A DNA stretch of 64,000 bases from Candidatus Omnitrophota bacterium. Its GTDB lineage: Bacteria; Omnitrophota; Gorgyraeia; Gorgyraeales; Gorgyraeaceae. Positions 7,708 to 63,869 of the stretch are shown here, one piece after another (positions within the stretch are counted from its first letter, which is position 1; every line of letters starts with the position of its first letter). A program made the position numbers and the translations under genes. The stretch is from the NCBI GenBank assembly GCA_041653835.1, contig JBAZEP010000002.1, positions 19,061-83,060 on the forward strand, given 5' to 3'. The notes under the pieces are model-generated. The model was not told the DNA's origin. It saw only the letters and a list, made by a program, of their open reading frames with translations, and searched no databases.

Positions 7708-7735
7708 AGTATACCATACATTTTCGTTTTGTCAA
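7708..7735 (-). promoter_or_regulatory. Sigma-70-type promoter for cvpA (TTGACA-17-TATACT)
   Basis: Minus-strand read: TTGACAaaacgaaaatgtatggTATACT about 40 nt upstream of the cvpA start. Confidence 0.55.
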
Positions 7736-7769
7736 CCCCGCCTCCCTGCTTTTTTATAGCCTTAATATA

Positions 7770-7963
7770 CCTCCGGCAGGCTATGGCCGTTCGGCACAGA
7801 GAGTGTTTCGCCGTGCGCTACGGTTTACGGCTCGTTTTTTATACTGAAGGTAGTCTTGACAGTATAAAAAACTTCGCCGTAATCCCTTGCGCACTTATAT
7901 TCAAAAGAACTTGTCCTATGCCGAAACCTCTCAAATGTGCCTCAGGCCCTAGCCTGCCGGAGG
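7770..7963. repeat. Long-hairpin structured element, copy A (inverted relative to copy B at 27718-27903)
   Basis: Outer 19 bp inverted repeat cctccggcaggctatggcc/ggccctagcctgccggagg; about 120 bp core about 90% identical to rc of 27770-27890; core is itself an imperfect hairpin with loop tcaagactRccttc. Confidence 0.7.
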
Positions 7964-8060
7964 CGTAAAAAAGCCTTTACATATATCTCTAAGTTTACAT
8001 TTATGATATTGTCTTAAATGTGGACTTGGACTGCGTATCTTACATTGCAAGTATTACAAC

Positions 8061-11971: not shown

Positions 11972-12084
11972 CCCGAGCGACTGTTGTCTTCTGTATCTTG
12001 TCGCGAGGGATAAATTCTTTACTGTCCCTCGTCCGCCAAAATTCTATAGCGGACTCGGGACGAATTTTGCCAAAGGCAAAATTC

Positions 12085-12159
12085 GGTGGACCTGAGCGGG
12101 ATCGAACCGCTGACCTCTTCGTTGCGAACGAAGCGCTCTCCCAGCTGAGCTACAGGCCC
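12085..12159 (-). tRNA. tRNA-Ala (anticodon CGC)
   Basis: rc: GGGCCTGTAGCTCAGCTGGGAGAGCGCTTCGTTCGCAACGAAGAGGTCAGCGGTTCGATCCCGCTCAGGTCCACC; cloverleaf with G3:U70, TTCGATC T-loop, anticodon loop TTCGCAA. Confidence 0.9.
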
Positions 12160-12744: not shown

Positions 12745-13135
12745 TCCAGCGTACCCTGACGCTAACCTCTTTATACCCATTGGCCTGCGGCTCCGCGATA
12801 TCGTATGTAAGTTCCCCTCCAGCATTATCAAGCTCCCCTTTTATCATTCCTCCCGTTTCTATCTCGTCCTCGGCATGATTACTGCCTATATCCATGGCCG
12901 GGCTTGAATAATACACATGACTGCCCCTTAATTTATCCAATGCCTCTACGGCAAAATTATACGCCTGGATCCTGTGCCTGGCGCGGTTAAGAAAATACTG
13001 GCTGCCCCAGAAAGTGCTGAACAGCCCGCCCGCAAGCGCTACTATAACCAGGGTAGCGACAATTATTTCTATCAGTGTAAAACCTTTTTTATTCGGAACG
13101 CTGGGACAGGAAATTTTATGGGGAAAGAGGGCCAT
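12728..13135 (-). CDS. Type IV pseudopilin (minor pilin, GspH/PilV-like)
   Basis: KKGFTLIEIIVATLVIVALAGGL prepilin N-terminus. Confidence 0.65.
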   Translation of the reverse strand: MALFPHKISCPSVPNKKGFTLIEIIVATLVIVALAGGLFSTFWGSQYFLNRARHRIQAYNFAVEALDKLRGSHVYYSSPAMDIGSNHAEDEIETGGMIKGELDNAGGELTYDIAEPQANGYKEVSVRVRWNETAF

Positions 13136-13529
13136 TTGAAGTTATTGTCCCGCTTTTGTCTATGTCGTAATAATAGGTCTTATAAGGGTTGGGCGCGTTA
13201 CTTCTTCTCTGGGCCCTGGCTGTAAAATCATCCGTATCCCCTGCCGGTACGGTGTAATCGAAATATTTCGCACCGGTATTAGGATTTTCTATATTTAAAC
13301 TGTCTATGTCGGTAGTAAAGAAAGAGTTTTCCAGAAAGTATATCTTCTCCCCTGTCCTTATAAGGTTAAGGTTGGAAGCGGCTTCTCCCAGCTTTGCCTT
13401 TTCCAATGTCTTGACGAGCATCGGCAGGGCAAGGGTAGCGAGTATCCCTATGATTATGACAACTATCAATATTTCCGTAAGCGTAAAACCTGTCTTGATG
13501 ATATTGAGTAGTCTGTTCTTTTTTATCAT
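13116..13529 (-). CDS. Type IV pilin (paralogue type X)
   Basis: TGFTLTEILIVVIIIGILATLALP; shares IRTGEKIYFLEN region with pilin at 14435..14800. Confidence 0.8.
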   Translation of the reverse strand: MIKKNRLLNIIKTGFTLTEILIVVIIIGILATLALPMLVKTLEKAKLGEAASNLNLIRTGEKIYFLENSFFTTDIDSLNIENPNTGAKYFDYTVPAGDTDDFTARAQRRSNAPNPYKTYYYDIDKSGTITSNGPLSP

Positions 13530-13547
13530 AACTCCATTAAGATTCCT

Positions 13548-13967
13548 CTAAGAAGCGGGACCGCCGAGATTCATGCTTCTTATAAGCCTGCCTGTAATAT
13601 TATCCGCCTGTATCCATTTTATCCAATAACTGATTGTGCCCAAGGTACGCGAAGCGGTTATCGTGTATTTTCTTACCAGACTCGTGCTCCCGTCATCGGT
13701 AAAAGTGTAAATATATAATTTATTCGTGATAATGTTCGGGTTATCTATATCCAGCGCAGAAAAATTATTATCCGCCGGTAAAGCGCCGTTCTGATACCAA
13801 TACCTATCCAGCGCCACTCTTATAGCCCCGATATTTATTACGGCTTCTCCGGACCTGGCCTTTTCTATGGTAGCTGTGTATTGGGGCAGCGCTATCGAAG
13901 CCAGTACACCCAAAATTATAACAACTATCAAAAGCTCCAAAAGCGTGAACCCTTTTTTGTTCATCAA
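13548..13967 (-). CDS. Type IV pilin (paralogue type Y)
   Basis: KKGFTLLELLIVVIILGVLASIALPQY; shares DRYWYQNG and C-terminal LGGPAS/LGGPTS with pilin at 13964..14374. Confidence 0.8.
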   Translation of the reverse strand: MMNKKGFTLLELLIVVIILGVLASIALPQYTATIEKARSGEAVINIGAIRVALDRYWYQNGALPADNNFSALDIDNPNIITNKLYIYTFTDDGSTSLVRKYTITASRTLGTISYWIKWIQADNITGRLIRSMNLGGPAS

Positions 13968-14374
13968 CTGGTCGGCCCTCCAAGTTTTGCGCTCCTTGTA
14001 AGCTTACTGGTATTGTTATCCGTCTGCGTCCATTGCACCCAGTAGTCCGCTTCTTTGCCGATACGCTCCGCCCTTATTGTATATTTTCTTGTCGAGGCAT
14101 CGGTCCCCCCGTCTGTAAGTATGTAATTATACAACCTGTTGACTACGTCGTTTGGGTTATCTATGTCTAAATCGGTTATAGCCGGAGGAAAAGTGCCGTT
14201 CTGATACCAATACCGGTCTACAGCCGTCCTCAACGCACCTATATTCGTAGACGCCTCGCCTGTCCTGCTTTTTTCTATGGTTGTCGTATATTGAGGCAGC
14301 GCTATCGCGGCAAGTATGCCTATAATAATAACGACTACAAGGACTTCTAAAAGAGTGAAACCTCTTTTTAGCAT
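13964..14374 (-). CDS. Type IV pilin (paralogue type Y, tandem duplicate)
   Basis: KRGFTLLEVLVVVIIIGILAAIALPQY; clear paralogue of 13548..13967. Confidence 0.8.
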   Translation of the reverse strand: MLKRGFTLLEVLVVVIIIGILAAIALPQYTTTIEKSRTGEASTNIGALRTAVDRYWYQNGTFPPAITDLDIDNPNDVVNRLYNYILTDGGTDASTRKYTIRAERIGKEADYWVQWTQTDNNTSKLTRSAKLGGPTS

Positions 14375-14434
14375 ATCCTATCTCCTTTTTTTCTTATATA
14401 CGTTTATTGCGTTATACCTCTATAAATACAAAAA

Positions 14435-14800
14435 TTACAAATATTCCCAATTCCCGGCAATCGTACCGGCCTGGTCCATAGTTACAGTCTCGCCGCTGTG
14501 GGTCCCGCCCGACCTGGTGGCAGTCGCCGTATAAGTAACGGAAGTAGGCGTAGATATGCCGAATGACCAGAATTTCTGGGTTAAAGTTATATCCAGATCC
14601 GCTGAATTATTTGTATAAAATTCGTTCTCCGCGAAATATACTTTTTCGCCTGTCTGTATATGGCCTAATCCCGCTCTGGCTTCTCCGCCTTTTGCTTTTT
14701 CAATGGAAGCCGCGAACTGAGGTATACCTATGGACGCCAATATACCAATTATAATAACGACTATAAGGACTTCTACCAGCGTAAAACCTTTTCTGTTCAT
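14435..14800 (-). CDS. Type IV pilin (paralogue type X; candidate major pilin with its own promoter)
   Basis: NRKGFTLVEVLIVVIIIGILASIGIPQF; strong promoter and SD directly upstream. Confidence 0.8.
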   Translation of the reverse strand: MNRKGFTLVEVLIVVIIIGILASIGIPQFAASIEKAKGGEARAGLGHIQTGEKVYFAENEFYTNNSADLDITLTQKFWSFGISTPTSVTYTATATRSGGTHSGETVTMDQAGTIAGNWEYL

Positions 14801-17843: not shown

Positions 17844-19325
17844 TTATCCGCCGAACAAATCTAAAATCGAGTTGACTTCTTTTTCTCTTACTGCCTTGGG
17901 CTTCTCCTGTTCTCTTTCGGAGATGCCGCCAAGGGCATATGCAGGCGTATCTTTCATTATGCGCGGCGTGATGAATATTACCAACTCCCTGTCTAAATCA
18001 TCTTTTGTCTTATATCTAAACGCCGAACCGATAACAGGTATGTCCCCGAAAAACGGCACTTTTTTAAGGCCATGGGTGCGCCTTGATCTTATAAGGCCTC
18101 CTATAATTATGGTTTCTCCATCTTTTATCATGACCGTGGTTTCCGTGGCGCGTTTGATAGTATCGAACTGGTCCGTATACCTGGAGTTTTCCAGATCAGT
18201 CACGCTCGGCTTTAAATTCATGGTTATATAACCATCCTTACTGATTTGGGGCGTAACTTCCAATATAACACCCGTGTCTTTTTCTTCGTAAGTAGTGCCT
18301 GTGGTGGCACCGCTGGAACCCACCGCGGTCGTGCTGGTTACCTGCCTGGCTATTTCCTTCCCTGTAAGCTCTATCTTTGCCAGTTCATTGTTCATTGTCA
18401 TGATCTGGGGCCTGGCCAGGACTTTTGTATCACTGCTGTTTTTTAGCGCGACTATCTGGGCCGTAGTGGCATCAAGCGCGAATGTGCCTGCGCCATCTGC
18501 CGCTATACCTTCTCCGCTGGAATTGTTCCTTCCAAGGCGGTTATTAAAAGGAAATATCGTATTATGTATAGGCCCTGTGTAGATCCCGAACGAGCCATCC
18601 CCCCAATTTATCCCGAGATTCTCTATAAGTTTCGCCGTAGTCTCCAGTACCTCTACCTTTATCATTACCTGGGGCGTCCTTATGTCTATCCTCGTAAGCA
18701 AATTTTCTATTATAGAGAACTGGCTAGGCACATCCCTTATAATAAGGCTGTTGGACCTTTTGTCCGCTATGACCTTCCCGTCTTTGGACAGCAGGCTTTG
18801 CACTATCGAGATTATTTCCCCTCCAGTCTGGCTGGGCGCTTCTTCGTCCCCTGAATAACCTGCGGCAGCCCTGGCAGGAGCGCTTAGCTGGGCATATTTC
18901 AATTCATATATTTTTGTTATTGTCTCTATCTCCGGTTTTCCTGTCTCTTTAACGATAAATATGTTGGTCCCGGGTTCCTGTTCATAAGCCAGGTTATTAG
19001 CGTTCATTATATAGTTAAGCGCGTCTTCGGTCTTGACATTGTCAAAATAGACCGTAACCGTCCTGTCCTGGACACTCTGGCCCGCGATAAAATTCAAGCC
19101 CGACTGCTGGGAAAACATCTTAAGCACGGTTTTCAGGTTCGCGTCCTGCAGATCCAGCGATATCAGGTTATTTTTGCCGGGAGACGTGTCTTTGGGATAC
19201 GCCTCGGCGGCAAATGAAAATGGAACCGACGCATAAATAACAAATATAATGGCAATAACCAATTTGATTGTTTTCATAATCAACCTCCGATTTTTACGAA
19301 GTAAAAATCGCCCCGAGCCCGCCAA
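17844..19325 (-). CDS. pilQ: Secretin PilQ/GspD
   Basis: Signal peptide, secretin-N domains, C-terminal secretin core (VPFFGDIPVIGSAFR). Confidence 0.85.
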   Translation of the reverse strand: MAGSGRFLLRKNRRLIMKTIKLVIAIIFVIYASVPFSFAAEAYPKDTSPGKNNLISLDLQDANLKTVLKMFSQQSGLNFIAGQSVQDRTVTVYFDNVKTEDALNYIMNANNLAYEQEPGTNIFIVKETGKPEIETITKIYELKYAQLSAPARAAAGYSGDEEAPSQTGGEIISIVQSLLSKDGKVIADKRSNSLIIRDVPSQFSIIENLLTRIDIRTPQVMIKVEVLETTAKLIENLGINWGDGSFGIYTGPIHNTIFPFNNRLGRNNSSGEGIAADGAGTFALDATTAQIVALKNSSDTKVLARPQIMTMNNELAKIELTGKEIARQVTSTTAVGSSGATTGTTYEEKDTGVILEVTPQISKDGYITMNLKPSVTDLENSRYTDQFDTIKRATETTVMIKDGETIIIGGLIRSRRTHGLKKVPFFGDIPVIGSAFRYKTKDDLDRELVIFITPRIMKDTPAYALGGISEREQEKPKAVREKEVNSILDLFGG

Positions 19326-19348
19326 AGCCCTGCGGCGGACGAGGGGCC

Positions 19349-20391: not shown

Positions 20392-22008
20392 CTATGGCCC
20401 TATTAATGATACCTCGAAACTCGAGACCTTCGCACCTTTGATCTCCGTCCTTTTGACGGATACTATGTCAGCCCTTGACATGCCGTTATTGACCCTGCTT
20501 TTTTTCAGGCCGCTTAAAAAAGTATTTACGATATCTTTATCGCCAGCTTTTTCATCTGTCACGTAATACCCTTTTATATTAAGGTACCGCGTAATCCTGG
20601 AAGTATTTTTCTTATCTATTTTTTCTTCAAAACTGATCTCGCTTAACCACATATTCTGAGGCAGTACCTTCACCACATCCTCCAGCCTGAATGTCAAATA
20701 TGTCCTGCTGGAGATAAGGTTTTCCAATATCTGTTTCCTTTTCTCCATCTCATTCTTAACCTTTTCCAGGTCCGGGATGTTGTCATTTTTTATATTTACC
20801 TCGGCCTTGGGCCTTTCGGATAGGGTCTTATTCAATTCTCCGGTAAGAGGAGCGACTGCCCTTATGGCGAATATCTTCAGGACTATCAATAAAAACACCG
20901 CTGCCGACGCTTCAAGGAAAGCCATCCTGAGAAACAATTCCTTCTTCTTATAAATCATCATTTTTTCTTTACATAAATTTATGTCTATAAACGGTTCCGC
21001 CAGGCCCCTGAGCGCCAGGCCGAAGCACACCGCCGCTCTCGCCGGCACAACGCCTGATTTAACCCTTATCCCACGCAAGGGGTCACCCGTCTCCACGGGT
21101 ATCTGCAGTTCCTTGCCTACTATTTCATGCCAGTTTTCCAGAGGCAGTTTACTGTATATGATTATCTTATCGATCACTTCACTGGGGAATTGTTTTTCAT
21201 AAAAATCAAAGGAAAGTTTTATCTCCGCCAGTATCTTTTCAAAAACGGGTTCGAACGACTTGCCTTCAGGCATAGCCTCGGAAATAGCTACATCTCTTAT
21301 TATATAAGGTACGCCGCTCCTGAGGATGCTTATATTAAGCGTATCGGTGTCTATATTGACTATGGCGGTATTGACTTTCGCGTCTATCTGTTGAGCGGCG
21401 TTGAAAGCCCTCATGAGACTGAAAGGCGCGGATTCTATTACAAGCGGCCTGAGCCCGGAGGCGGCAAGGATATTCATATATTGTTCTATGGTATCTTTTT
21501 TAACCGCTACAAAGACCACATCCGTGACATTCGGCGTGGTTTTATTCGCCAATACCTGGAAATCCGAAACTACATCTTCCATGCGGAAAGGTATGTGCCG
21601 CTTTGCTTCGAAATTAACAGCCGCTATTCTTTCCTGTTTCGGGATCTTCGGCATCTGAAAATAACGTACCATGATCTCTTCGCTTGGTATAGCCGTTATC
21701 ACATCGCCTGGTTTCTCATTATTTTCCCGGAAAACTTTTTTTATGGCTTCTATTATATAATCTTCTCTTGTCTTGGGCTTGGTTGACGAATCATCGCGGC
21801 TGACAGACGCGATCCCCGCCTGGGACTCCGGCACGACTTCTCCCTCTTGCCTGGCATCTTTGGAAGGATAGATAGGCGTCTGTCCGAATTTAACGAGCTT
21901 GGGCCCGGCAATGCTTGATTTAAGCACTACCAGGTCTACGGTGTCCTGGCTCACGTAAAGCCCGACTACCTTTTTGGCGTTAAATATAGACAATATGTTT
22001 TTATCCAT
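20392..22008 (-). CDS. PilM-PilN fusion protein (actin-like ATPase fold plus TM PilN-like C-terminal domain)
   Basis: About 350 aa PilM-like N-terminal region then a hydrophobic segment (AFLEASAAVFLLIVLKIFAI) and a 170 aa C-terminal domain; 538 aa total. Confidence 0.65.
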   Translation of the reverse strand: MDKNILSIFNAKKVVGLYVSQDTVDLVVLKSSIAGPKLVKFGQTPIYPSKDARQEGEVVPESQAGIASVSRDDSSTKPKTREDYIIEAIKKVFRENNEKPGDVITAIPSEEIMVRYFQMPKIPKQERIAAVNFEAKRHIPFRMEDVVSDFQVLANKTTPNVTDVVFVAVKKDTIEQYMNILAASGLRPLVIESAPFSLMRAFNAAQQIDAKVNTAIVNIDTDTLNISILRSGVPYIIRDVAISEAMPEGKSFEPVFEKILAEIKLSFDFYEKQFPSEVIDKIIIYSKLPLENWHEIVGKELQIPVETGDPLRGIRVKSGVVPARAAVCFGLALRGLAEPFIDINLCKEKMMIYKKKELFLRMAFLEASAAVFLLIVLKIFAIRAVAPLTGELNKTLSERPKAEVNIKNDNIPDLEKVKNEMEKRKQILENLISSRTYLTFRLEDVVKVLPQNMWLSEISFEEKIDKKNTSRITRYLNIKGYYVTDEKAGDKDIVNTFLSGLKKSRVNNGMSRADIVSVKRTEIKGAKVSSFEVSLIGP

Positions 22009-22208
22009 TATAAAGCCTGTTTAACTGTTTTAGATTTAGCCTCTACCATTTGAGAATTCAGCCATTCATCAACCGACTTCTTATCGAATCTCCAGACATG
22101 GCCTACCTTTATGCCGGAGATCTTCTTTTGATGAAGCCAATTGTAGATAGTCTGCTTCTCTAACTTAAGATACCTGGCTAATTCATCCGTATCCATGAGT
22201 CTTGACAT
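22008..22208 (-). CDS. Helix-turn-helix (excisionase/AlpA-like, HTH_17 family) DNA-binding protein
   Basis: 66 aa; TDELARYLKLEKQTIYNWLHQKKISGIKVGHVWRFDKKSVDEWL matches the excisionase-family HTH; stop overlaps the pilM-N start. Confidence 0.65.
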   Translation of the reverse strand: MSRLMDTDELARYLKLEKQTIYNWLHQKKISGIKVGHVWRFDKKSVDEWLNSQMVEAKSKTVKQAL

Positions 22209-22253
22209 TTATAACACCTCCTAATATACTTACTAATTTTATGGGTGAAACAA

Positions 22254-22282
22254 AATATACCATAAAGAACTTACTTTGTCAA
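22254..22282 (-). promoter_or_regulatory. Sigma-70-type promoter (TTGACA-17-TATATT) inside a 227 bp extremely AT-rich region, driving the HTH-pilMNOPQ genes
   Basis: Minus-strand read cTTGACAaagtaagttctttatggTATATT ... GGAGGTGttataaATG. Confidence 0.55.
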
Positions 22283-22435
22283 GGAAGGGTAAAGAGGCTG
22301 TAAGTTGTTAATTAATATAACTATTTTAAAATAAATAACTTATATAAAAAAATAATATGATGAAAAAATAAAGGAAAAATACATAAAATTTCATATATTT
22401 TTCCTTAACTTATTTAAATATAAATAGTTATATAA

Positions 22436-22768
22436 TTATGGCGCTGATATTTTTTGGTATTCCGCCTTGGAGGTTATTGTATATCTGCCTGAAACAGGCC
22501 CTGATATAGTTATTACGACATCAGTGCCCCCCACAGTAATAGTGCTTCCGCTATAGCCCGGTTCATCGGTATTTGGCCCAAGCTTCCAATATGCGTAATT
22601 GATACCTGCTTCTGCCGAAACCATAGCCTTAAGCCTTTTTATTTGCCCTTCACATATGCTATTATAATTATAAGTTGTCAATAGCACCGCGATAGCTGCC
22701 GCGGATAACAGAAACAACAATGCCAGGCTTATGAAGATAGCTACACCTTTATTATTGTATATATTCAT
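22436..22768 (-). CDS. PilX N-terminal domain protein (minor pilus-associated)
   Basis: NKGVAIFISLALLFLLSAAAIAVL resembles the PilX_N motif (qrGvAL...). Confidence 0.5.
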   Translation of the reverse strand: MNIYNNKGVAIFISLALLFLLSAAAIAVLLTTYNYNSICEGQIKRLKAMVSAEAGINYAYWKLGPNTDEPGYSGSTITVGGTDVVITISGPVSGRYTITSKAEYQKISAP

Positions 22769-25014: not shown

Positions 25015-27465
25015 TTATCTATTCTCTTCTATTTTCCTGAGCCTTTCCTTCGCGAGCGCCGACTCTTTTACGTCCATCTCGGATATCTTTCTATACATTT
25101 TTCCAGCCTCTTCCATTTTACCCTGCTTTTCCATCAATTCGGCGCACAGGAGAAAAGCGTTCGCGACTATCTCGGTGGAATCCGGATATATGTACCCGAC
25201 TTTCATATATTCCGCGATAGCGTTATCTACATCCCCGGATTCTTCATAAAGCCGGCCTATGGTAAGCTGGATACCGGCGTTAAAATCCCCCCGCCTGTCA
25301 TCCAGGGAATTTTTATAATACCCAATAGCTTCCTGGATGTTGCCTTCTTTTTTCATGATATCCCCGAGATATTTGAAAGCCACTTTTACAAAATCAGTAT
25401 CCTTGTAGTCCTCCAAGAATTTTAAAAGCCTGGCTTTAGCTTCGCCATAATCTTTCTTTTTCATTAAAATATCCGCGATCTTAAGCTCTGCCGCGGGAAT
25501 AAGATCGCTGCCGCTATAAACCATTTTAAGGTTTTCGAGATAGGCCGCGCTTTTATCCAGTTCGCCTTTTTCATAAAAAATTATCGCGGTCCTGTAGACC
25601 GCGTCATCGCTGAGAGAATCTTCCGGGGACTCCTTGACCAGATTATCGAAATACTTTTCCGCTTTGTCAAAATCCTTTCTGTTAGCATAATACTCGCCCA
25701 GCCAGAACTTTACTTCTCCTGTCAATTCATCCTGGGGATACCGGGTTATATAGTCTTCGAATTGGTTAAGGGCTTTCTTATTATCCCCCATCCTGTAATA
25801 GCACCATCCTATTTCATATAACGCGCGTTTGGCAAGCTGGGTGCCGGACCTGTTTGACGCTATGCCCTGGAACACCTCTATCGCCTGTTTATATTCGGAG
25901 ATGTTATAAAAAGCCCCTGCCATCTGGAACTCGGCGTCATCCCTGTATTTTGTATTCTTGAACTTTTCAAGGAATGCCCTGAATTCACGGGCGGCGTCCT
26001 GAAAAGAGCCTTTCTTGAAATATGACGCCGCTACGCCGTAAGACGCGTCTTCGGCGTACCTGGAAGAGGGGTAATTTTTCAACAAACTGCCGAAAGCCAG
26101 TATCGCGCCTTCGTAACGTTCTGATTTGAATTGTATCCTGCCTATCTGGTATTGGGCATAATCCACATAACCGAATACGGCGTCGGGATTGACACTGGCC
26201 TCTTTTAAAACCATGTCATAAGCTTCCGACGCTTTTTCCAGCTGATTCAGCTGGAAATACGCGTCCCCCAGCCTGCAATACGAGCTTATCCTGTAAATAT
26301 CATCATTTGTTGTCTTGATGACCCTGCTGAACTCCTCTATCGCGTCATTATACCTGCCTGTTTTAAAATACAGCCAGCCGAGATTATACCTCATATCATC
26401 GGCATAGCCGGCGGGAGGGAATTTGTTTATTCCGTCTTTCAGCACCTCTATGCCGTCCTCGTATAAACCAAGATTATAAAGCGCTTCGGATTTGCCGAGA
26501 TATGCTTTCATTATTAAGGCGCTTTTGGGAAATTTTTCTATAATCTCGCTGAAACATTTTAAAGCGTCGTCAAATTTTTTCATTTTCATAAACGCCTGGG
26601 CCTTGCCTTCGAGCGCGGAATCCATGACATCGTAACTCTTTTTGAAATTCCCCAGACGGTCGAATTCCCTGGCAGCGTCCTCATACCGCTCTAATTTCAT
26701 ATAGCTCCACGCCATGTCGTATATAGCGTAAAAATCTATGTCATCCTCCGGAGCGATCTCGAGCGCTTTCTTGAACGCCTCCAGCGCGGCCTTGTAGTCA
26801 TTCTGGTAATAATGGTTTTCACCGGTATAAAAATAAGCGAGTTTGGCTTTTTTTATGTCTTTGGTCCTGGCGATGAGCCCCGCTAATCTTTCCCTGGATT
26901 CGTCGTATTTCTTAAGCCGGTAGAGTGTCTCCCCTATCTTCAATTCGGCATCTTCTTTTAATTCGTTCGCGGGATATTCGGATATAAAGGCTGAAAATTT
27001 ATTGATAGAATCCTGGTATTTTTTTTCTTCGTAGAGCGACCGCGCGTACGCGTATTTAACGTAAGGCGTGTAATTCGATTTTGGAAATTCCGCGAGAATG
27101 GAATCGTATATCTCCCTGGCCTTCTCGAAATCCCCGGTCCTGGAATATATCTCCGATTTCCAGTACATCGCCTCGTCCTTGGGCCCTGTCCACCCGGCGG
27201 AGTTTATCACGGCGTCCAGTTCTTTCATCGCGTCGGTGAACCTGTTAAGATACACATAGGACTCTCCCAGCAAAAGCCGCGCGTTATAAACATCCGTGTC
27301 AAAGGGATTTTCGGATAAAAATTTTTCGAACGCCTTGGCGGCTATTTCATAAAATCCGTCCTGGAAGGATTTCTTAGCCAGGCTGAGATCGGAATTTTCC
27401 CCGTATCCGGCCCCTGCCATCAATATGACAGCTATAATAATAAATATATATTTAATACATCTCAT
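25015..27465 (-). CDS. Large TPR-repeat protein with signal peptide; start at MRCIKYIF (27465), not the longer ORF
   Basis: Many TPR repeats; the ORF extension to 27618 runs through a palindromic noncoding element and lacks an RBS. Confidence 0.7.
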   Translation of the reverse strand: MRCIKYIFIIIAVILMAGAGYGENSDLSLAKKSFQDGFYEIAAKAFEKFLSENPFDTDVYNARLLLGESYVYLNRFTDAMKELDAVINSAGWTGPKDEAMYWKSEIYSRTGDFEKAREIYDSILAEFPKSNYTPYVKYAYARSLYEEKKYQDSINKFSAFISEYPANELKEDAELKIGETLYRLKKYDESRERLAGLIARTKDIKKAKLAYFYTGENHYYQNDYKAALEAFKKALEIAPEDDIDFYAIYDMAWSYMKLERYEDAAREFDRLGNFKKSYDVMDSALEGKAQAFMKMKKFDDALKCFSEIIEKFPKSALIMKAYLGKSEALYNLGLYEDGIEVLKDGINKFPPAGYADDMRYNLGWLYFKTGRYNDAIEEFSRVIKTTNDDIYRISSYCRLGDAYFQLNQLEKASEAYDMVLKEASVNPDAVFGYVDYAQYQIGRIQFKSERYEGAILAFGSLLKNYPSSRYAEDASYGVAASYFKKGSFQDAAREFRAFLEKFKNTKYRDDAEFQMAGAFYNISEYKQAIEVFQGIASNRSGTQLAKRALYEIGWCYYRMGDNKKALNQFEDYITRYPQDELTGEVKFWLGEYYANRKDFDKAEKYFDNLVKESPEDSLSDDAVYRTAIIFYEKGELDKSAAYLENLKMVYSGSDLIPAAELKIADILMKKKDYGEAKARLLKFLEDYKDTDFVKVAFKYLGDIMKKEGNIQEAIGYYKNSLDDRRGDFNAGIQLTIGRLYEESGDVDNAIAEYMKVGYIYPDSTEIVANAFLLCAELMEKQGKMEEAGKMYRKISEMDVKESALAKERLRKIEENR

Positions 27466-27528
27466 CTTGATTATAAATATAGCATTGAGCGGCTTAATGT
27501 TCAAGAGAAAAGTGAAAATATACAAATT

Positions 27529-27687
27529 CTCTTTTCCGGCTGGCAGGCTTTCGAAAAGACGCTTGACCGCCCCAGCGTGGCGGTCTACGCTCAGTGTTTC
27601 TTCTCGCTCGTCCGCCACAAAACGATGGCGGACACCATGCCCGCTCGAAGAAACAATGCTTTTCTCAAACCTGCCAGCCGGAAATAG
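27529..27687. repeat. Long palindromic structured element C (nested inverted repeats)
   Basis: Outer about 26 bp inverted repeat (ttttccggctggcaggctttcgaaaag / cttttctcaaacctgccagccggaaa), inner inverted repeat gtttcttctcgctcg/cgctcgaagaaac, two GC hairpins gaccgcc..ggcggtc and tccgcc..ggcgga. Confidence 0.6.
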
Positions 27688-27717: not shown

Positions 27718-27903
27718 GAGCCAGGTTGGGACATAAGGCACATTAGAAAAATTTCGGCATAATTTATTTTTTATTCTGCTAAGTGCGCAAGGAATTACGG
27801 CGAAGTTTTTATACCGTCAAGACTGCCTTCGGTATAAAAAATGAGCCGTAAACCGTAGCGCACGGCGAAATTATTTCAGTGCCGAATGGCCCCAACCTGG
27901 CTC
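27718..27903. repeat. Long-hairpin structured element, copy B (inverted relative to copy A)
   Basis: Outer inverted repeat gagccaggttggg/cccaacctggctc; core matches rc of 7800-7910 at about 90% with a compensatory C-G vs T-A stem change. Confidence 0.7.
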
Positions 27904-37628: not shown

Positions 37629-37632
37629 ATCC

Positions 37633-37670
37633 TAAGGTAAGATTTCTGACAGTGTCAAAAATCTTACCTA
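37633..37670. repeat. REP-like intercistronic palindrome (taaggtaagatttcTGACAgTGTCAaaaatcttaccta)
   Basis: 17/18 bp inverted arms around TGACA-g-TGTCA; fills the dapL-stop/folK-start gap. Confidence 0.65.
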
Positions 37671-38834
37671 AAGCACCTTTTTCAGCCTCTCGACCGCTTC
37701 CCGTATCCTTTCTTTGGAAACAGTGAGCGCGAACCTTACATAGCCTTCGCCGTTCTCCCCGAAACCTATACCCGGGGTAATTATGATGTCCGCGCCATCG
37801 AGAACCGACTGGGCGAATTTAATGGATGATCTTTGCTTGCCTGGCAATTTCGCCCATACATAGAATGTGGCTTTTGGTTTCTTTACCGGCCATCCCAATC
37901 TATTCAATCCGTCCACCAGCTCATCCCTTCTTTCCTGGTACACATTATTCATTCTCTCGAGATGCTTATCCGCTATATCAAGGGCGGTGACCCCCGCGGC
38001 CTGGACAGCGTTAAACACCCCGGAATCCACATTCGATTTTACCCTGGCTATGCCGCTTATGATCTTCTCGTTGCCGCAGGCAAAACCTACGCGCCAGCCT
38101 GTCATATTACAGGTTTTCGAAAGCGAATGGAATTCCACCCCTGTCTCCATGGCGCCGCTGGCTTTCAAAAAGCTATCAGGCCTGTAGCCATCGAACGCCA
38201 CCTCGGAATAAGCAGCGTCGGATGCTACCATGAGATTATATTTTTTGGCGAAAAGGACAACATCTTCAAAAAAACCTTTTTCACAGGTAGCGGCTGTAGG
38301 ATTATTGGGGTAGTTTATATAAATGACTTTCGCTTTTTTGAGCGCGGATTTTTTTATGCTGTTCAGGTCAGGCAGGAAGTTATTCTCTTCTTTTAAAGGC
38401 ATCAGGCAAGGTACGCCTCCCGCCAGTATAGTCCCGCCTTTATACGGAGGATAACACGGGTCAGGGACAAGTGAAATATCCCCGGGGTTAACGAACGCGA
38501 GCGGCATATGGCTTATGCCTTCTTTCGAACCTATGAGAGGCAGTATCTCTTTCTCCGGATCCAGGCTGACGCCGAACCTTTCCCTGTACCACGACGCGAT
38601 CCTCTCCCTGAAAACAGAATTGCCCTGGTCCAGAGGATAATGATGATTTTTCGGGTCCTGGACAGCTTTATAAAGAGATTCTATCACCTCTTTGGGCGTA
38701 GGTTCGTCAGGGTCTCCTATACCGAGATCTATAATGTCGCGGCCCTGAGCGGCCGCCTGTCTCTTTGCCTTATCTATTTCCACAAAAAGATAAGGAGGAA
38801 GCTTATTTAATCTTTTACTGAAATCAAAATTCAT
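37668..38834 (-). CDS. dapL: LL-diaminopimelate aminotransferase (class I aminotransferase, DapL-like)
   Basis: N-terminal LNKLPPYLFVEIDKAKRQ motif typical of DapL; PLP-lysine region; sits in the dap/lys cluster. Confidence 0.7.
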   Translation of the reverse strand: MNFDFSKRLNKLPPYLFVEIDKAKRQAAAQGRDIIDLGIGDPDEPTPKEVIESLYKAVQDPKNHHYPLDQGNSVFRERIASWYRERFGVSLDPEKEILPLIGSKEGISHMPLAFVNPGDISLVPDPCYPPYKGGTILAGGVPCLMPLKEENNFLPDLNSIKKSALKKAKVIYINYPNNPTAATCEKGFFEDVVLFAKKYNLMVASDAAYSEVAFDGYRPDSFLKASGAMETGVEFHSLSKTCNMTGWRVGFACGNEKIISGIARVKSNVDSGVFNAVQAAGVTALDIADKHLERMNNVYQERRDELVDGLNRLGWPVKKPKATFYVWAKLPGKQRSSIKFAQSVLDGADIIITPGIGFGENGEGYVRFALTVSKERIREAVERLKKVL

Positions 38835-39579: not shown

Positions 39580-39591
39580 ATAATGTCTCCC

Positions 39592-39630
39592 TAAGGGAAC
39601 ATTTTTGACAATGTCATAAATGTTCCCTTA
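39592..39630. repeat. REP-like intercistronic palindrome (taagggaacattttTGACAaTGTCAtaaatgttccctta)
   Basis: 18/19 bp inverted arms; runs from the dapA stop to 12 nt before the dapB start. Confidence 0.65.
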
Positions 39631-51382: not shown

Positions 51383-51410
51383 ATTGTACCATAAAACCCG
51401 GTATTGTCAA
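51383..51410 (-). promoter_or_regulatory. Sigma-70-type promoter for rplM-rpsI (TTGACA-16-TACAAT)
   Basis: Minus-strand read gcTTGACAataccgggttttatggTACAATttaaacttcttgcGGAGtaaaatATG. Confidence 0.55.
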
Positions 51411-51518
51411 GCAAAAAAATGCCTGCTGGCGGTTATTTTTTGATTGATGCCGCAAAGACTTTTGCGGCGCAAGCAAAAAAATGCCTGCTGGCGGTTATTT
51501 TTTGATTGATGCCGCAAA
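51409..51518. repeat. Tandem direct duplication (2 x 48 bp units, 62 bp period) spanning the 3' end of the aldolase-like gene
   Basis: aagcaaaaaaatgcctgctggcggttattttttgattgatgccgcaaa occurs at 51409-51456 and 51471-51518 separated by gacttttgcggcgc. Confidence 0.85.
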
Positions 51519-52085
51519 AGCTTTTATGGCTGTTACGCCCGCGTCTTTGAGGGTTTTGCCCATGGAAATAAATCCATGGCCTTTCATTATTACAAATTCC
51601 CTGTTTCCCAACGCTTTCAGGACGCTTTTTATCAGTTTTAAGGTGCCATAAGGTTCTTTTTTGGCGGTCTGGCAGAATTTCAGCCTCGCGGCGGAACATA
51701 AAATCTCTTCGCAATGGCCGTGGAAGATCGCGTTCACATCCTTCCTTTTATGATAAATGGCGAAATGAAGCATGCTTTCCGAAGAAGGCTCTTTCAGCCC
51801 ATGCGAATATACTATGTTTTTGTCGAAGTCAACGCCCGAGACCCTTACAAAATTTCTATTAGACAGACACTTCTTAAGGCCTATCCTTGAACCTGTTATT
51901 ATAAACTCGTCGCTTCCTTTTTTTACCCTGAAACTGAGATTTCCGTAAGAACCGCCTTCATAAGGAGGCGCCAGGTTATAGTCATGGAATTTTTCGCACC
52001 AGTATTTCAACTTTTTGATCCTGGCGTCTTTTGGAGGACTATCGCTAAGCCTGATTATTTTGAATTTTACGCCCGCGTACGCCAT
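51495..52085 (-). CDS. Class II aldolase/adducin family protein
   Basis: SSESMLHFAIYHKRKDVNAIFHGH matches the class II aldolase motif (sSE..lH..iy..v.AvvHtH). Confidence 0.6.
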   Translation of the reverse strand: MAYAGVKFKIIRLSDSPPKDARIKKLKYWCEKFHDYNLAPPYEGGSYGNLSFRVKKGSDEFIITGSRIGLKKCLSNRNFVRVSGVDFDKNIVYSHGLKEPSSESMLHFAIYHKRKDVNAIFHGHCEEILCSAARLKFCQTAKKEPYGTLKLIKSVLKALGNREFVIMKGHGFISMGKTLKDAGVTAIKAFAASIKK

Positions 52086-63829: not shown

Positions 63830-63869
63830 TAAGGGAACATTTGTGACAGTGTCACAAATGTTCCCTTAG
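63830..63869. repeat. REP-like intercistronic palindrome (taagggaacatttgTGACAgTGTCAcaaatgttcccttag)
   Basis: 19 bp perfect inverted arms; overlaps the SBP stop codon and ends 19 nt before the oppB-like start. Confidence 0.7.

Follow-up and report, generated by a model that had tools for sequence, protein, structure and literature searches.

Introduction

Intergenic repeats of the ERIC/IRU type in enterobacteria are imperfect palindromes longer than 100 bp that lie between genes in either orientation, are probably co-transcribed, and are highly conserved between species; their copy number varies between genomes, and longer variants arise through inserts at fixed internal sites. We know of no enzyme that mobilizes them. 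REPINs, doublets of REP sequences that form hairpins, are mobilized by RAYT transposases, and their hairpins are proposed to form in single-stranded DNA (ssDNA) or mRNA (Bertels & Rainey 2011, PMC3116915). Here we describe an apparently undescribed family of hairpin elements from Candidatus Omnitrophota genomes and environmental metagenome contigs, starting from two copies, A and B, in a 64,000-nucleotide stretch of one such genome (contig JBAZEP010000002.1; hereafter the window). The elements are modular hairpins, under selection for pairing, that occur in multiple copies at non-orthologous intergenic sites, in either orientation, and are polymorphic for insertion. We read A and B as members of two subfamilies of non-autonomous, hairpin-dependent interspersed repeats mobilized in trans, a reading to which we assign a probability of roughly 0.6.

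By analogy, the closest known systems in layout and behavior are REPINs, with ERIC and BIME-type mosaics also close. Like a REPIN, the Omnitrophota element has two conserved inverted blocks of ~20-26 nt (TTTCGCCGTGCGCTACGGTTTACGGC and GCCGTAANNCCTTGCGCAC..TGCCGAAA) around a less conserved, hairpin-capable spacer of 31-68 nt that usually folds, and compensatory changes are common; it is likewise dispersed, extragenic and non-autonomous, with subfamilies within genomes and sometimes higher-order mosaics. The resemblance is one of layout only: the element is about twice as long (165-240 vs about 70-110 nt), its covarying stems reach well outside the blocks, the blocks are not terminal, and its orientation shows no strand bias. 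Neither RAYT nor another Y1 transposase lies beside 163 loci, and no Y1_Tnp domain occurs in the families shared by the 145 nearest open reading frames (ORFs), in a search of flanks rather than whole genomes. In 2013 Di Nocera and colleagues are said to have described REPs tagged at one end by GTAG or CGTC. A terminal tag of either kind is absent here: CTAC occurs in one arm only (GCGCTACGG), its partner arm reads CTTG, and neither stands at the end of the element.

The element matches ERIC in palindromy over more than 100 bp, intergenic and probably co-transcribed siting, use of either orientation, high conservation between species, variable copy number and variants with internal inserts, but it has no sequence similarity to ERIC, comes from a different phylum, is longer, has a hypervariable tip, and nests in palindromic modules. 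A blastn search (word size 11) with copy A against 5,426 complete E. coli genomes gave no match at E <= 1e-3. As in BIMEs, intergenic gaps are built from combined palindromic modules, the A gap holding the hairpin plus remnants of a 40-nt palindrome and of a terminal motif, and the B gap the hairpin and a separate module; in BIMEs, however, the modules lie side by side, whereas here they are concentric (up to >400 nt), and the sequences are unrelated. We conclude that the element is analogous to REPIN, ERIC and BIME repeats and not homologous to them, and that on the features tested it belongs to none of the three. It is a new family within a known kind, the interspersed hairpin-forming repeats of bacteria, and is unusual in conserving an internal-loop core rather than its ends and in nesting its modules concentrically.

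Results

Copies A and B are homologous hairpins

We define the canonical orientation as that of copy A on the plus strand and copy B on the minus strand (Table 1). A first-pass annotation of the window had described the two copies as inverted relatives, each folding as a long imperfect hairpin, and both statements hold. A repeat finder paired inverted arms at 7777-7870 and 27806-27899 (94 nt, 86%) and at 7867-7897 and 27780-27810 (31 nt, 97%); alignment of A(+) with B(-) by MAFFT gave 84% identity over ~190 columns, with differences at only 6 of 92 positions in the core (7806-7897). Within the window the 22- and 23-mers of the core are confined to A and B (0/100 shuffles contain them), and a covariance-model search of the 64 kb found no third copy. 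Each copy forms a single hairpin of ~190 nt whichever strand is folded, with energies of -104/-113 kcal/mol for A and -83/-84 kcal/mol for B; across both copies and strands z ranges from -9 to -14, and none of 200 shuffles was equally stable. The paired change that had been noticed near the tip is real (TATACTG/CAGTATA in A, TATACCG/CGGTATA in B; alignment columns 106 and 122), and the middle stem is kept by compensated changes (AGAGAG/CTCTC in A vs TGAAA/TTTTC in B). The outer repeats had been called entirely different in sequence, which was an overstatement: they are diverged homologues, CCTCCGGCAGGCTATGGCC vs TTGAGCCAGGTTGGGGCC, whose substitutions are compensated.

The family is widespread and divided into subfamilies

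The first-pass annotation had allowed that A and B might prove to be the only copies. An exact 22-mer from the core (GCCGTGCGCTACGGTTTACGGC), scanned against species-representative genomes, instead found 43 loci in 19 species-level genomes, nearly all titled Candidatus Omnitrophota and a few labelled 'Planctomycetales' (TPA). Fifteen of these loci lie in one metagenome-assembled genome (MAG), LacPavin_0920_SED5_MAG_41_13, where several mark the end of a contig. Further, more diverged copies within the genome loci were recovered by fuzzy matching and with a covariance model, R1. A looser pattern that fixes internal-loop bases only (GCTACGGTTTAC N44-74 GTAANNCCTTGC) matched at least 120 metagenome contigs, their taxonomy unassigned, and 85 copies from the first 80 metagenome loci score 57-156 bits with R1. 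Copy number per genome runs from 1 to at least 15.

One MAG holds two subfamilies, 94-98% identical within and ~83% between, with copies at different loci. Copy A belongs to one subfamily and copy B to the other: A is 96% identical to the copy at locus L018, from another species, and 82% to B, and B is 89-90% identical to the copies at L007, L013, L015 and L016. The flanking genes of these genome pairs are 70-77% identical at the DNA level, and those of A and L018 73-76%.

No known family accounts for the element. At gathering thresholds, Rfam 15 returned a single match in the window, a tRNA; in permissive E-value mode, copy A and a composite copy drew only hairpins of miRNA precursors, at 13-20 bits against thresholds of 53-86, and a known RNA family was rejected on both searches. 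Phage or plasmid cargo was rejected likewise, with no match in IMG/VR, PLSDB or INPHARED. Nothing relevant emerged from full-text literature searches that used core 12-mers or looked for repeats or RNA motifs in Omnitrophota.

A conserved core lies within variable ends

We extracted complete hairpins from all loci and the window (n=151; median 201 nt, range 164-242). From outside to inside they are laid out as P1, P2, P3, an optional insert, P4, an internal-loop region, P5 and a tip. P1 (15-25 bp) is highly variable across the family. P2 carries a conserved asymmetric bulge, C-U-G facing C-UAAU-G, which in A is an AAAT/UAAU-type bulge at 7933-7936; P3 is UUUYGCC/GGCRAAA, alternating between UUUCGCC/GGCGAAA and UUUUGCC/GGCAAAA; P4 is G-NNN-GC/GC-NNN-C; and the distal part of P5 is ACGGC/GCCGT or a variant of it. 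The insert is AT-rich, restricted to the 3' arm, and 3-30 nt long (3 nt in many copies, about 25-30 nt in A). Inside P4, an 8 x 8 region (UACGGUUU/AANNCCUU) holds fixed T.T and C.C mismatches and one imperfect pair. Two asymmetric internal loops, UACGGUUUAC / GUAANNCCUUGC and the UAAU-type bulge, are near constant across 85-151 copies. The tip varies from 31 to 68 nt, with a sequence that depends on the subfamily and often includes UAGNCUUACG or GACUAUCG. What is conserved is a core of ~45 bp comprising P4, the internal loop UACGGUUUAC / GUAANNCCUUGC and P5, and the termini are the least conserved part.

The 3' block is missing at two loci: L040 reads as an internal deletion, and at L001 the contig runs out ~355 nt past the break. 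We rejected a protein-coding element, as the ORF at 7729-7968 (+) and ORFs like it cluster solely through DNA conservation, tip lengths differ by numbers of nucleotides not divisible by three, and substitutions in one arm are compensated in the other. Palindromic flanks, considered as target hairpins, proved to be subfamily-specific extensions of P1.

Pairing is maintained while sequence changes

That primary sequence diverges while pairing persists had been taken from A and B as a sign of a selected secondary structure, and the further copies bear this out. In 37 copies aligned with MAFFT, an alignment not fitted to structure, 22 of the 40 pairs called by RNAalifold show double changes. Among the 85 metagenome copies, 95.8% of cells are paired, vs 84% in shuffles; 12 of 23 pairs, and 232 cells, have changed on both sides; none of 500 shuffles reached the observed covariation score, and slid registers pair at 38-46% only. 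Three middle pairs of P4, which lie outside the search pattern, alternate (CG 43 / GC 36; CG 49 / UA 26 / GC 8), as does a P3 pair (UA 41 / CG 39). Because pairing is kept while the sequence changes, we conclude that the folded structure of the family is under selection.

The covariation is almost solely Watson-Crick, single-sided G-U intermediates being very rare at covarying pairs. G-U content and folding energy point to different strands: G-U pairs make up 4.8% on the canonical strand vs 3.3% on the reverse, and the reverse strand is the more stable in 135/151 copies, with the qualification for both comparisons that the copies share one core and are not independent observations. An apical mini-stem with G-U covariation was tried and rejected; the consistent stem there is ACGY/RCGT, which is Watson-Crick and so does not identify the strand.

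Copies occupy intergenic sites that are empty in relatives

All 49 copies checked in genome loci are intergenic. Relative to co-directional neighbors, 13 have the same orientation and 12 the opposite; five are flanked by divergent genes, and no copy is flanked by convergent ones. Copies often lie within 20-40 nt of an upstream stop codon, before the next promoter, as at A. In the window, the A gap is bounded by a radical-SAM/UPF0004 (MiaB-like) gene and a CvpA-like gene, and the B gap by uvrA and a TPR gene. Because these four flanking genes are all encoded on the minus strand, A and B are oppositely oriented relative to transcription; both follow gene stops, in the context first described. 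The gaps, 389 nt and 303 nt, are unusually large. Simple ORF calls place 61 of 63 ORFs on the minus strand, most gaps being shorter than 60 nt, and GC skew is negative along the whole window (1-64000); the one-sided ORFs and the uniform skew indicate that the window lies inside a single replichore, in a genome that is very compact.

Two syntenic relatives have no copy at site A. The MiaB-like stop and the cvpA start are separated by 389 nt in the window, by 46 nt in L118 and by 77 nt in L031; all three keep the cvpA promoter TTGACA-N16-TATACT. The L011 copy lies exactly where two genes of L019 overlap at ATGA, and at the site of the L018 copy L148 carries only a small GTCCGCC..GGCGGAC hairpin. 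The flanks of such filled and empty pairs are 68-79% identical, too diverged for base-exact insertion junctions. Site B is occupied in the window, in L041 (by two copies) and in L053, with differing subfamilies and orientations; a short-read Logan contig with an identical UvrA stops ~95 nt past the uvrA stop codon, close to where B reaches its far end.

Across the 151 copies, variation is greatest at the element ends and the flanking DNA is unique, with no promoter or terminator conserved beside the copies and no common flanking tetranucleotide seen at the 151 junctions. Neighbors in the genome loci are housekeeping genes (RuvB, MTHFR, AIR synthase, FtsW, ABC transporters and similar), and those in the window encode CvpA-like, NIF3-like, radical-SAM/UPF0004, TPR, UvrA and M20 peptidase proteins. 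All-against-all BLAST of ORFs, at 43 and then 163 loci, found no recurrent neighbor family, and Pfam scans of the recurrent clusters and the 145 nearest ORFs returned housekeeping families only. A guide or partner RNA of an adjoining gene was rejected because no neighbor recurs in the 163 loci. The first reading of the window had seen no reverse transcriptase, TnpB/IscB or CRISPR component nearby; this extends to all 163 loci, where, as in the window, no cognate gene of a retron non-coding RNA (ncRNA), TnpB/IscB omega-RNA, IS110 bridge RNA or CRISPR system adjoins a copy.

At two loci (L055:3265-3290 and L096:4280-4304) the element begins right after an apparent tRNA 3' end (GGTTCGATTCCCGCCAGGCGCA), which may be a recurrent insertion position. 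Inverted pairs of copies from different subfamilies, 40-170 nt apart, occur at L041:5233-5664, L043:4003-4445 (= L051) and L044:713-1185; the paired arrangement is identical in the independent samples L043 and L051.

Elements nest concentrically in other palindromic repeats

At many loci the hairpin extends outward to >400 nt. The surrounding layers constitute a repeat of their own, which begins with a terminal motif TGTAATACTTTCAATGNTAGGTNACA, continues through GCCAGCCCTGGCAGGYTTTGAGAAAAGCCTCGCCGATT to a conserved asymmetric loop CGAGCGGGCAYGGTG / CGAGCGAG, and encloses the element. The inner element is found in both orientations within the same outer repeat, and also with one outer arm only; the slot at which modules are exchanged lies between GAGCGGGCAYGGTG and CGAGCGAG. 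In other genomes the hairpin is enclosed by outer layers to which a ~150-bp module beside B is homologous. The layout of this module is GCTGGCAGG.TTTGAGAAAAG ... GAGCGGGCATGGTG / small hairpin / CGAGCGAG ... CTTTTCGAAAGCCTGCCAGC, with GAGCGGGCATGGTG at 27633-27646, and its apex is a small hairpin (TCCGCC..GGCGGA) where L017 has the ~190-nt element. This concentric nesting suggests an insertion preference for hairpin apices, which to our knowledge has not previously been described for bacterial repeats. The module overlaps the annotated start of the ORF at 25015-27618, whose real start is probably near 27522, since residue 33 is where the tblastn alignment starts.

The A gap, too, has a mosaic makeup. 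Reading from the MiaB-like stop codon, a 15-mer remnant is followed by a degenerate 40-nt palindrome (7988-8028) and then the hairpin. The 15-mer, GTAATACTTGCAATG, lies within 8031-8057 on the minus strand, starts 3 nt past the stop codon, and matches the terminal motif of composite hairpins (TGTAATACTTTCAATGnTAGGTnACA), which occurs 31 times in related loci, at 14 of 15 positions; the full 25-nt terminal motif had no match in the A gap within 3 mismatches. The 14/15 match so close to the stop codon suggests that the entire 389-nt gap is what remains of a composite insertion. A promoter at one end of the composite terminal motif (TTGAAT-N17-CATAAT) was considered and rejected, being not conserved across copies.

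Other palindromic repeats were seen alongside. Near-perfect 40-nt palindromes, CTAAGGGAACATTTnTGACAnTGTCAnAAATGTTCCCTTAG, lie in short intergenic gaps at 39591-39630, 63830-63869 and 37631-37671, two copies being 93% identical and the copy at 7988-8028 degenerate; this family may be an operator, a terminator or another repeat module. Small intergenic REP-like hairpins, (C)GTCCGCC-N8-12-GGCGGAC(G), are found at 12018-12068, 19303-19345, 27597-27633 and L148:14115-14150. They fill the apex slot used elsewhere by the ~190-nt element, and the one in L148 marks the position orthologous to the L018 copy. A further palindromic family, TTTAGCGGGTGG...CACCCGCTAAA (TTTAGCGGGTGGCTTGGCTTGATTT...GAGCGGGCAYGGTTCACCCGCTAAA), adjoins 28 of the 151 copies (for example L100:2540-2660, L105, L140 and L146) and has the motif GAGCGGGCAYGGT in common with the outer-layer repeat.

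Table 1. Coordinates of the hairpin copies, the parts of copy A and the associated repeat modules in the window
Feature	Position	Strand	Basis
Copy A, complete hairpin element of ~194 nt	7770-7963	+	sequence; fold z = -13; covariance-model match 7788-7946, 153.9 bits
A: 5' arm of outer stem P1 (CCTCCGGCAGGCTATGGCC), partner 7945-7963	7770-7788	+	fold; 4-18 double changes in the P1 columns among 37 copies
A: 5' arms of P2 (GGCAC AGAGAG) and P3 (TTTCGCC), partner 7919-7941	7793-7812	+	fold, alignments
A: conserved 5' core block GTGCGC-TACGGTTTAC-GGC (P4 5' arm, conserved internal loop, P5 5' arm)	7813-7831	+	
A: variable tip, 44 nt; stem GTTTTTTATACTG/CAGTATAAAAAAC, loop AAGGTAGTCTTGA	7832-7875	+	
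A: conserved 3' core block GCCGT-AATCCCTT-GCGCAC (P5 3' arm, conserved loop, P4 3' arm)	7876-7894	+	
A: AT-rich 3'-arm insert (optional) separating P4 from P3	7895-7918	+	alignments
A: 3' arm of P1 (GGCCCTAGCCTGCCGGAGG)	7945-7963	+	repeat finder, fold
Rest of the A-gap mosaic	7988-8057	-	repeat finder, sequence, motif scan
Palindromic repeat module beside B	27533-27685	.	repeat finder; BLAST and reading vs L017
Copy B, complete hairpin element	27718-27903	-	covariance-model match 27732-27888, 148 bits

Other features of the window

Four tandem paralogous small genes (121-139 aa) at 13116-14800 (-), which account for the direct repeats D1-D3, encode proteins whose N-terminus is of the prepilin type, with KGFTLVE / TGFTLTE ahead of a hydrophobic helix; the products are probably type II secretion or type IV pilus pseudopilins. 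A tandem duplication at 51408-51530 consists of units of 61-62 nt, 93% identical, each with an A-run / hairpin / T-run and a second GC hairpin (GCCGCAAAGACTTTTGCGGC), both terminator-like. The largest remaining gap, 22008-22436 (428 nt), is AT-rich (~39% GC in its 2-kb bin) with overlapping AT palindromes at 22305-22433. The window has one tRNA, at 12087-12159 (-).

Discussion

We favor mobilization at the DNA level because no promoter or terminator is conserved in the flanks, orientation is random, covariation is Watson-Crick, and copy number and position vary. The elements would multiply through a folded single-stranded intermediate, most likely ssDNA and possibly RNA, with a trans-encoded protein recognizing the conserved core rather than the termini; selection on this recognition step would preserve both the hairpin and its asymmetric loops. 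Copies inserted just past stop codons would probably be co-transcribed as stable 3' hairpins, a secondary effect that would arise in either orientation.

A miniature inverted-repeat transposable element (MITE) was among the origins first proposed, and half of that proposal stands. Copies are numerous, occur in both orientations and nest, and site A is empty in relatives; like classical MITEs (Correia/NEMIS, RUP, Nezha), the element is small, non-coding, multi-copy, foldable, intergenic and insertion-polymorphic. It differs from them in lacking conserved terminal inverted repeats and target-site duplications, and no related autonomous insertion sequence was found: at the 163 loci no copy encloses or adjoins a transposase-like ORF.

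Several observations weigh against mobilization in trans. The check for target-site duplications that the first-pass annotation had suggested found none at 151 junctions and none at the filled and empty pairs. No transposase, integrase, reverse transcriptase or TnpB recurs in 1.07 Mb of flanks, where a crude HUH-Y1 motif scan (an HUH+Y regular expression) also gave no match. The termini are the least conserved part and the center the most, the reverse of a MITE defined by terminal inverted repeats, and conserved asymmetric loops between covarying helices have the look of a functional structured RNA. A replication-strand mechanism of the IS200/IS605 type is disfavored by random orientation (13:12) where nearly all genes share a strand, gene direction being a proxy only for replication direction; A and B themselves lie in opposite orientation within one replichore. 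The element further departs from IS200/IS605-type (PATE-like) ssDNA transposition in showing no orientation bias and no fixed 4-5-nt target at its left end. The identity of 96% between A and its L018 relative, set against 73-76% in flanking genes, implies either strong selection on nearly every base or lateral spread. Lastly, both collection scans used exact core patterns, so the conservation of the patterned bases is partly ascertainment. Where the pattern left the 3' block unconstrained, in the first set, CCTTGC is invariant in 37/37 copies, and matches found by the model only keep the loop yet change P4 with full compensation (L043:4282-4420, GTCTGC/GCAGAC).

A bolder proposal, which we advance only tentatively, is that the ~90-nt core (P3-P5, with its two near-invariant loops and apical motif) represents a new class of structured nucleic acid with a dedicated protein partner: either a dispersed protein-binding RNA, a bacterial ncRNA resembling short interspersed nuclear elements (SINE-like), or an ssDNA hairpin that is the substrate of a new mobilization or recombination enzyme targeting hairpin apices. 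If so, the apex-targeting enzyme would produce the concentric hairpin-within-hairpin composites of >400 nt.

The best-surviving rival, which we consider unlikely, holds that the element is primarily a functional structured RNA, whether a multi-copy protein-binding ncRNA or a cis-acting module of 3' untranslated regions that protects or insulates transcripts, and that dispersal is secondary. An ncRNA had been suggested from A and B, and it stays alive as a minority reading through the conserved asymmetric loops between covarying helices, the apical motif (UAGNCUUACG / GACUAUCG), the mild G-U excess on the canonical strand, the siting of many copies just past stop codons and upstream of the next promoter, and conservation between species far above that of the flanking genes. 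The flanks speak otherwise, being unique DNA with no conserved promoter or terminator, and with copies oriented 13 to 12, read-through would yield the canonical strand from some copies and the complementary strand from others. Also at odds with a primary RNA function are the rarity of G-U intermediates at covarying pairs, the greater stability of the opposite strand in most copies, copy numbers from one to at least 15 at sites that are not conserved, and the lack of a match among Rfam families.

We regard as improbable that the element is a folded-DNA site, a cruciform or ssDNA hairpin for a site-specific recombinase or an architectural protein, in the manner of attC. It shares with attC a conservation of structure above sequence, conserved unpaired or extrahelical bases (here including the T.T and C.C mismatches, which are fixed), a terminal structure that varies, and pairing that is almost wholly Watson-Crick, an analogy that suggests a folded DNA strand; exchange of modules at the fixed slot between GAGCGGGCAYGGTG and CGAGCGAG and the missing target-site duplications would also fit. 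Unlike attC sites, however, the copies are solitary rather than arrayed in cassettes, two of them lying 20 kb apart in the window; the ends have no R''/R' boxes (RYYYAAC / GTTRRRY) or other conserved R-box-like sequence, the core is much more conserved, and neither an integrase nor any other recombinase gene recurs nearby.

Another early suggestion was a bidirectional hairpin terminator or insulator; that an intrinsic terminator or insulator of this kind emerged separately at each site is very improbable. In its favor, the hairpin is very stable and is placed after a stop codon and ahead of the next promoter. Against it, no U-tract (T-run in the DNA) follows the stem in either direction, a terminator scan found no intrinsic terminator at A or B, and A has a T-run before its hairpin and an A-run after it, the reverse of the expected order. 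Five copies also separate divergent genes, and a local origin is excluded by the sequence homology that spans 19 genomes. A recent private duplication of A and B, with paired changes produced by gene conversion from arm to arm, can be dismissed as next to impossible: long palindromes can homogenize their arms, but arm conversion would erase the conserved asymmetric loops and mismatches, A and B fall in different trans-species subfamilies, and the family has hundreds of other copies.

The Omnitrophota, an uncultured phylum of wide ecological distribution, have compact genomes. A repeat family that occupies the largest intergenic gaps, breaks MAG assemblies and outlasts neighboring genes in conservation is worth annotating, and offers a natural marker for typing strains and judging assembly quality. 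With more than 150 diverse copies that combine covarying helices and fixed loops, the family also provides a data set on what maintains REPIN- and ERIC-like repeats, one that could address whether this is a mobilizing enzyme acting on folded ssDNA or a function in RNA.

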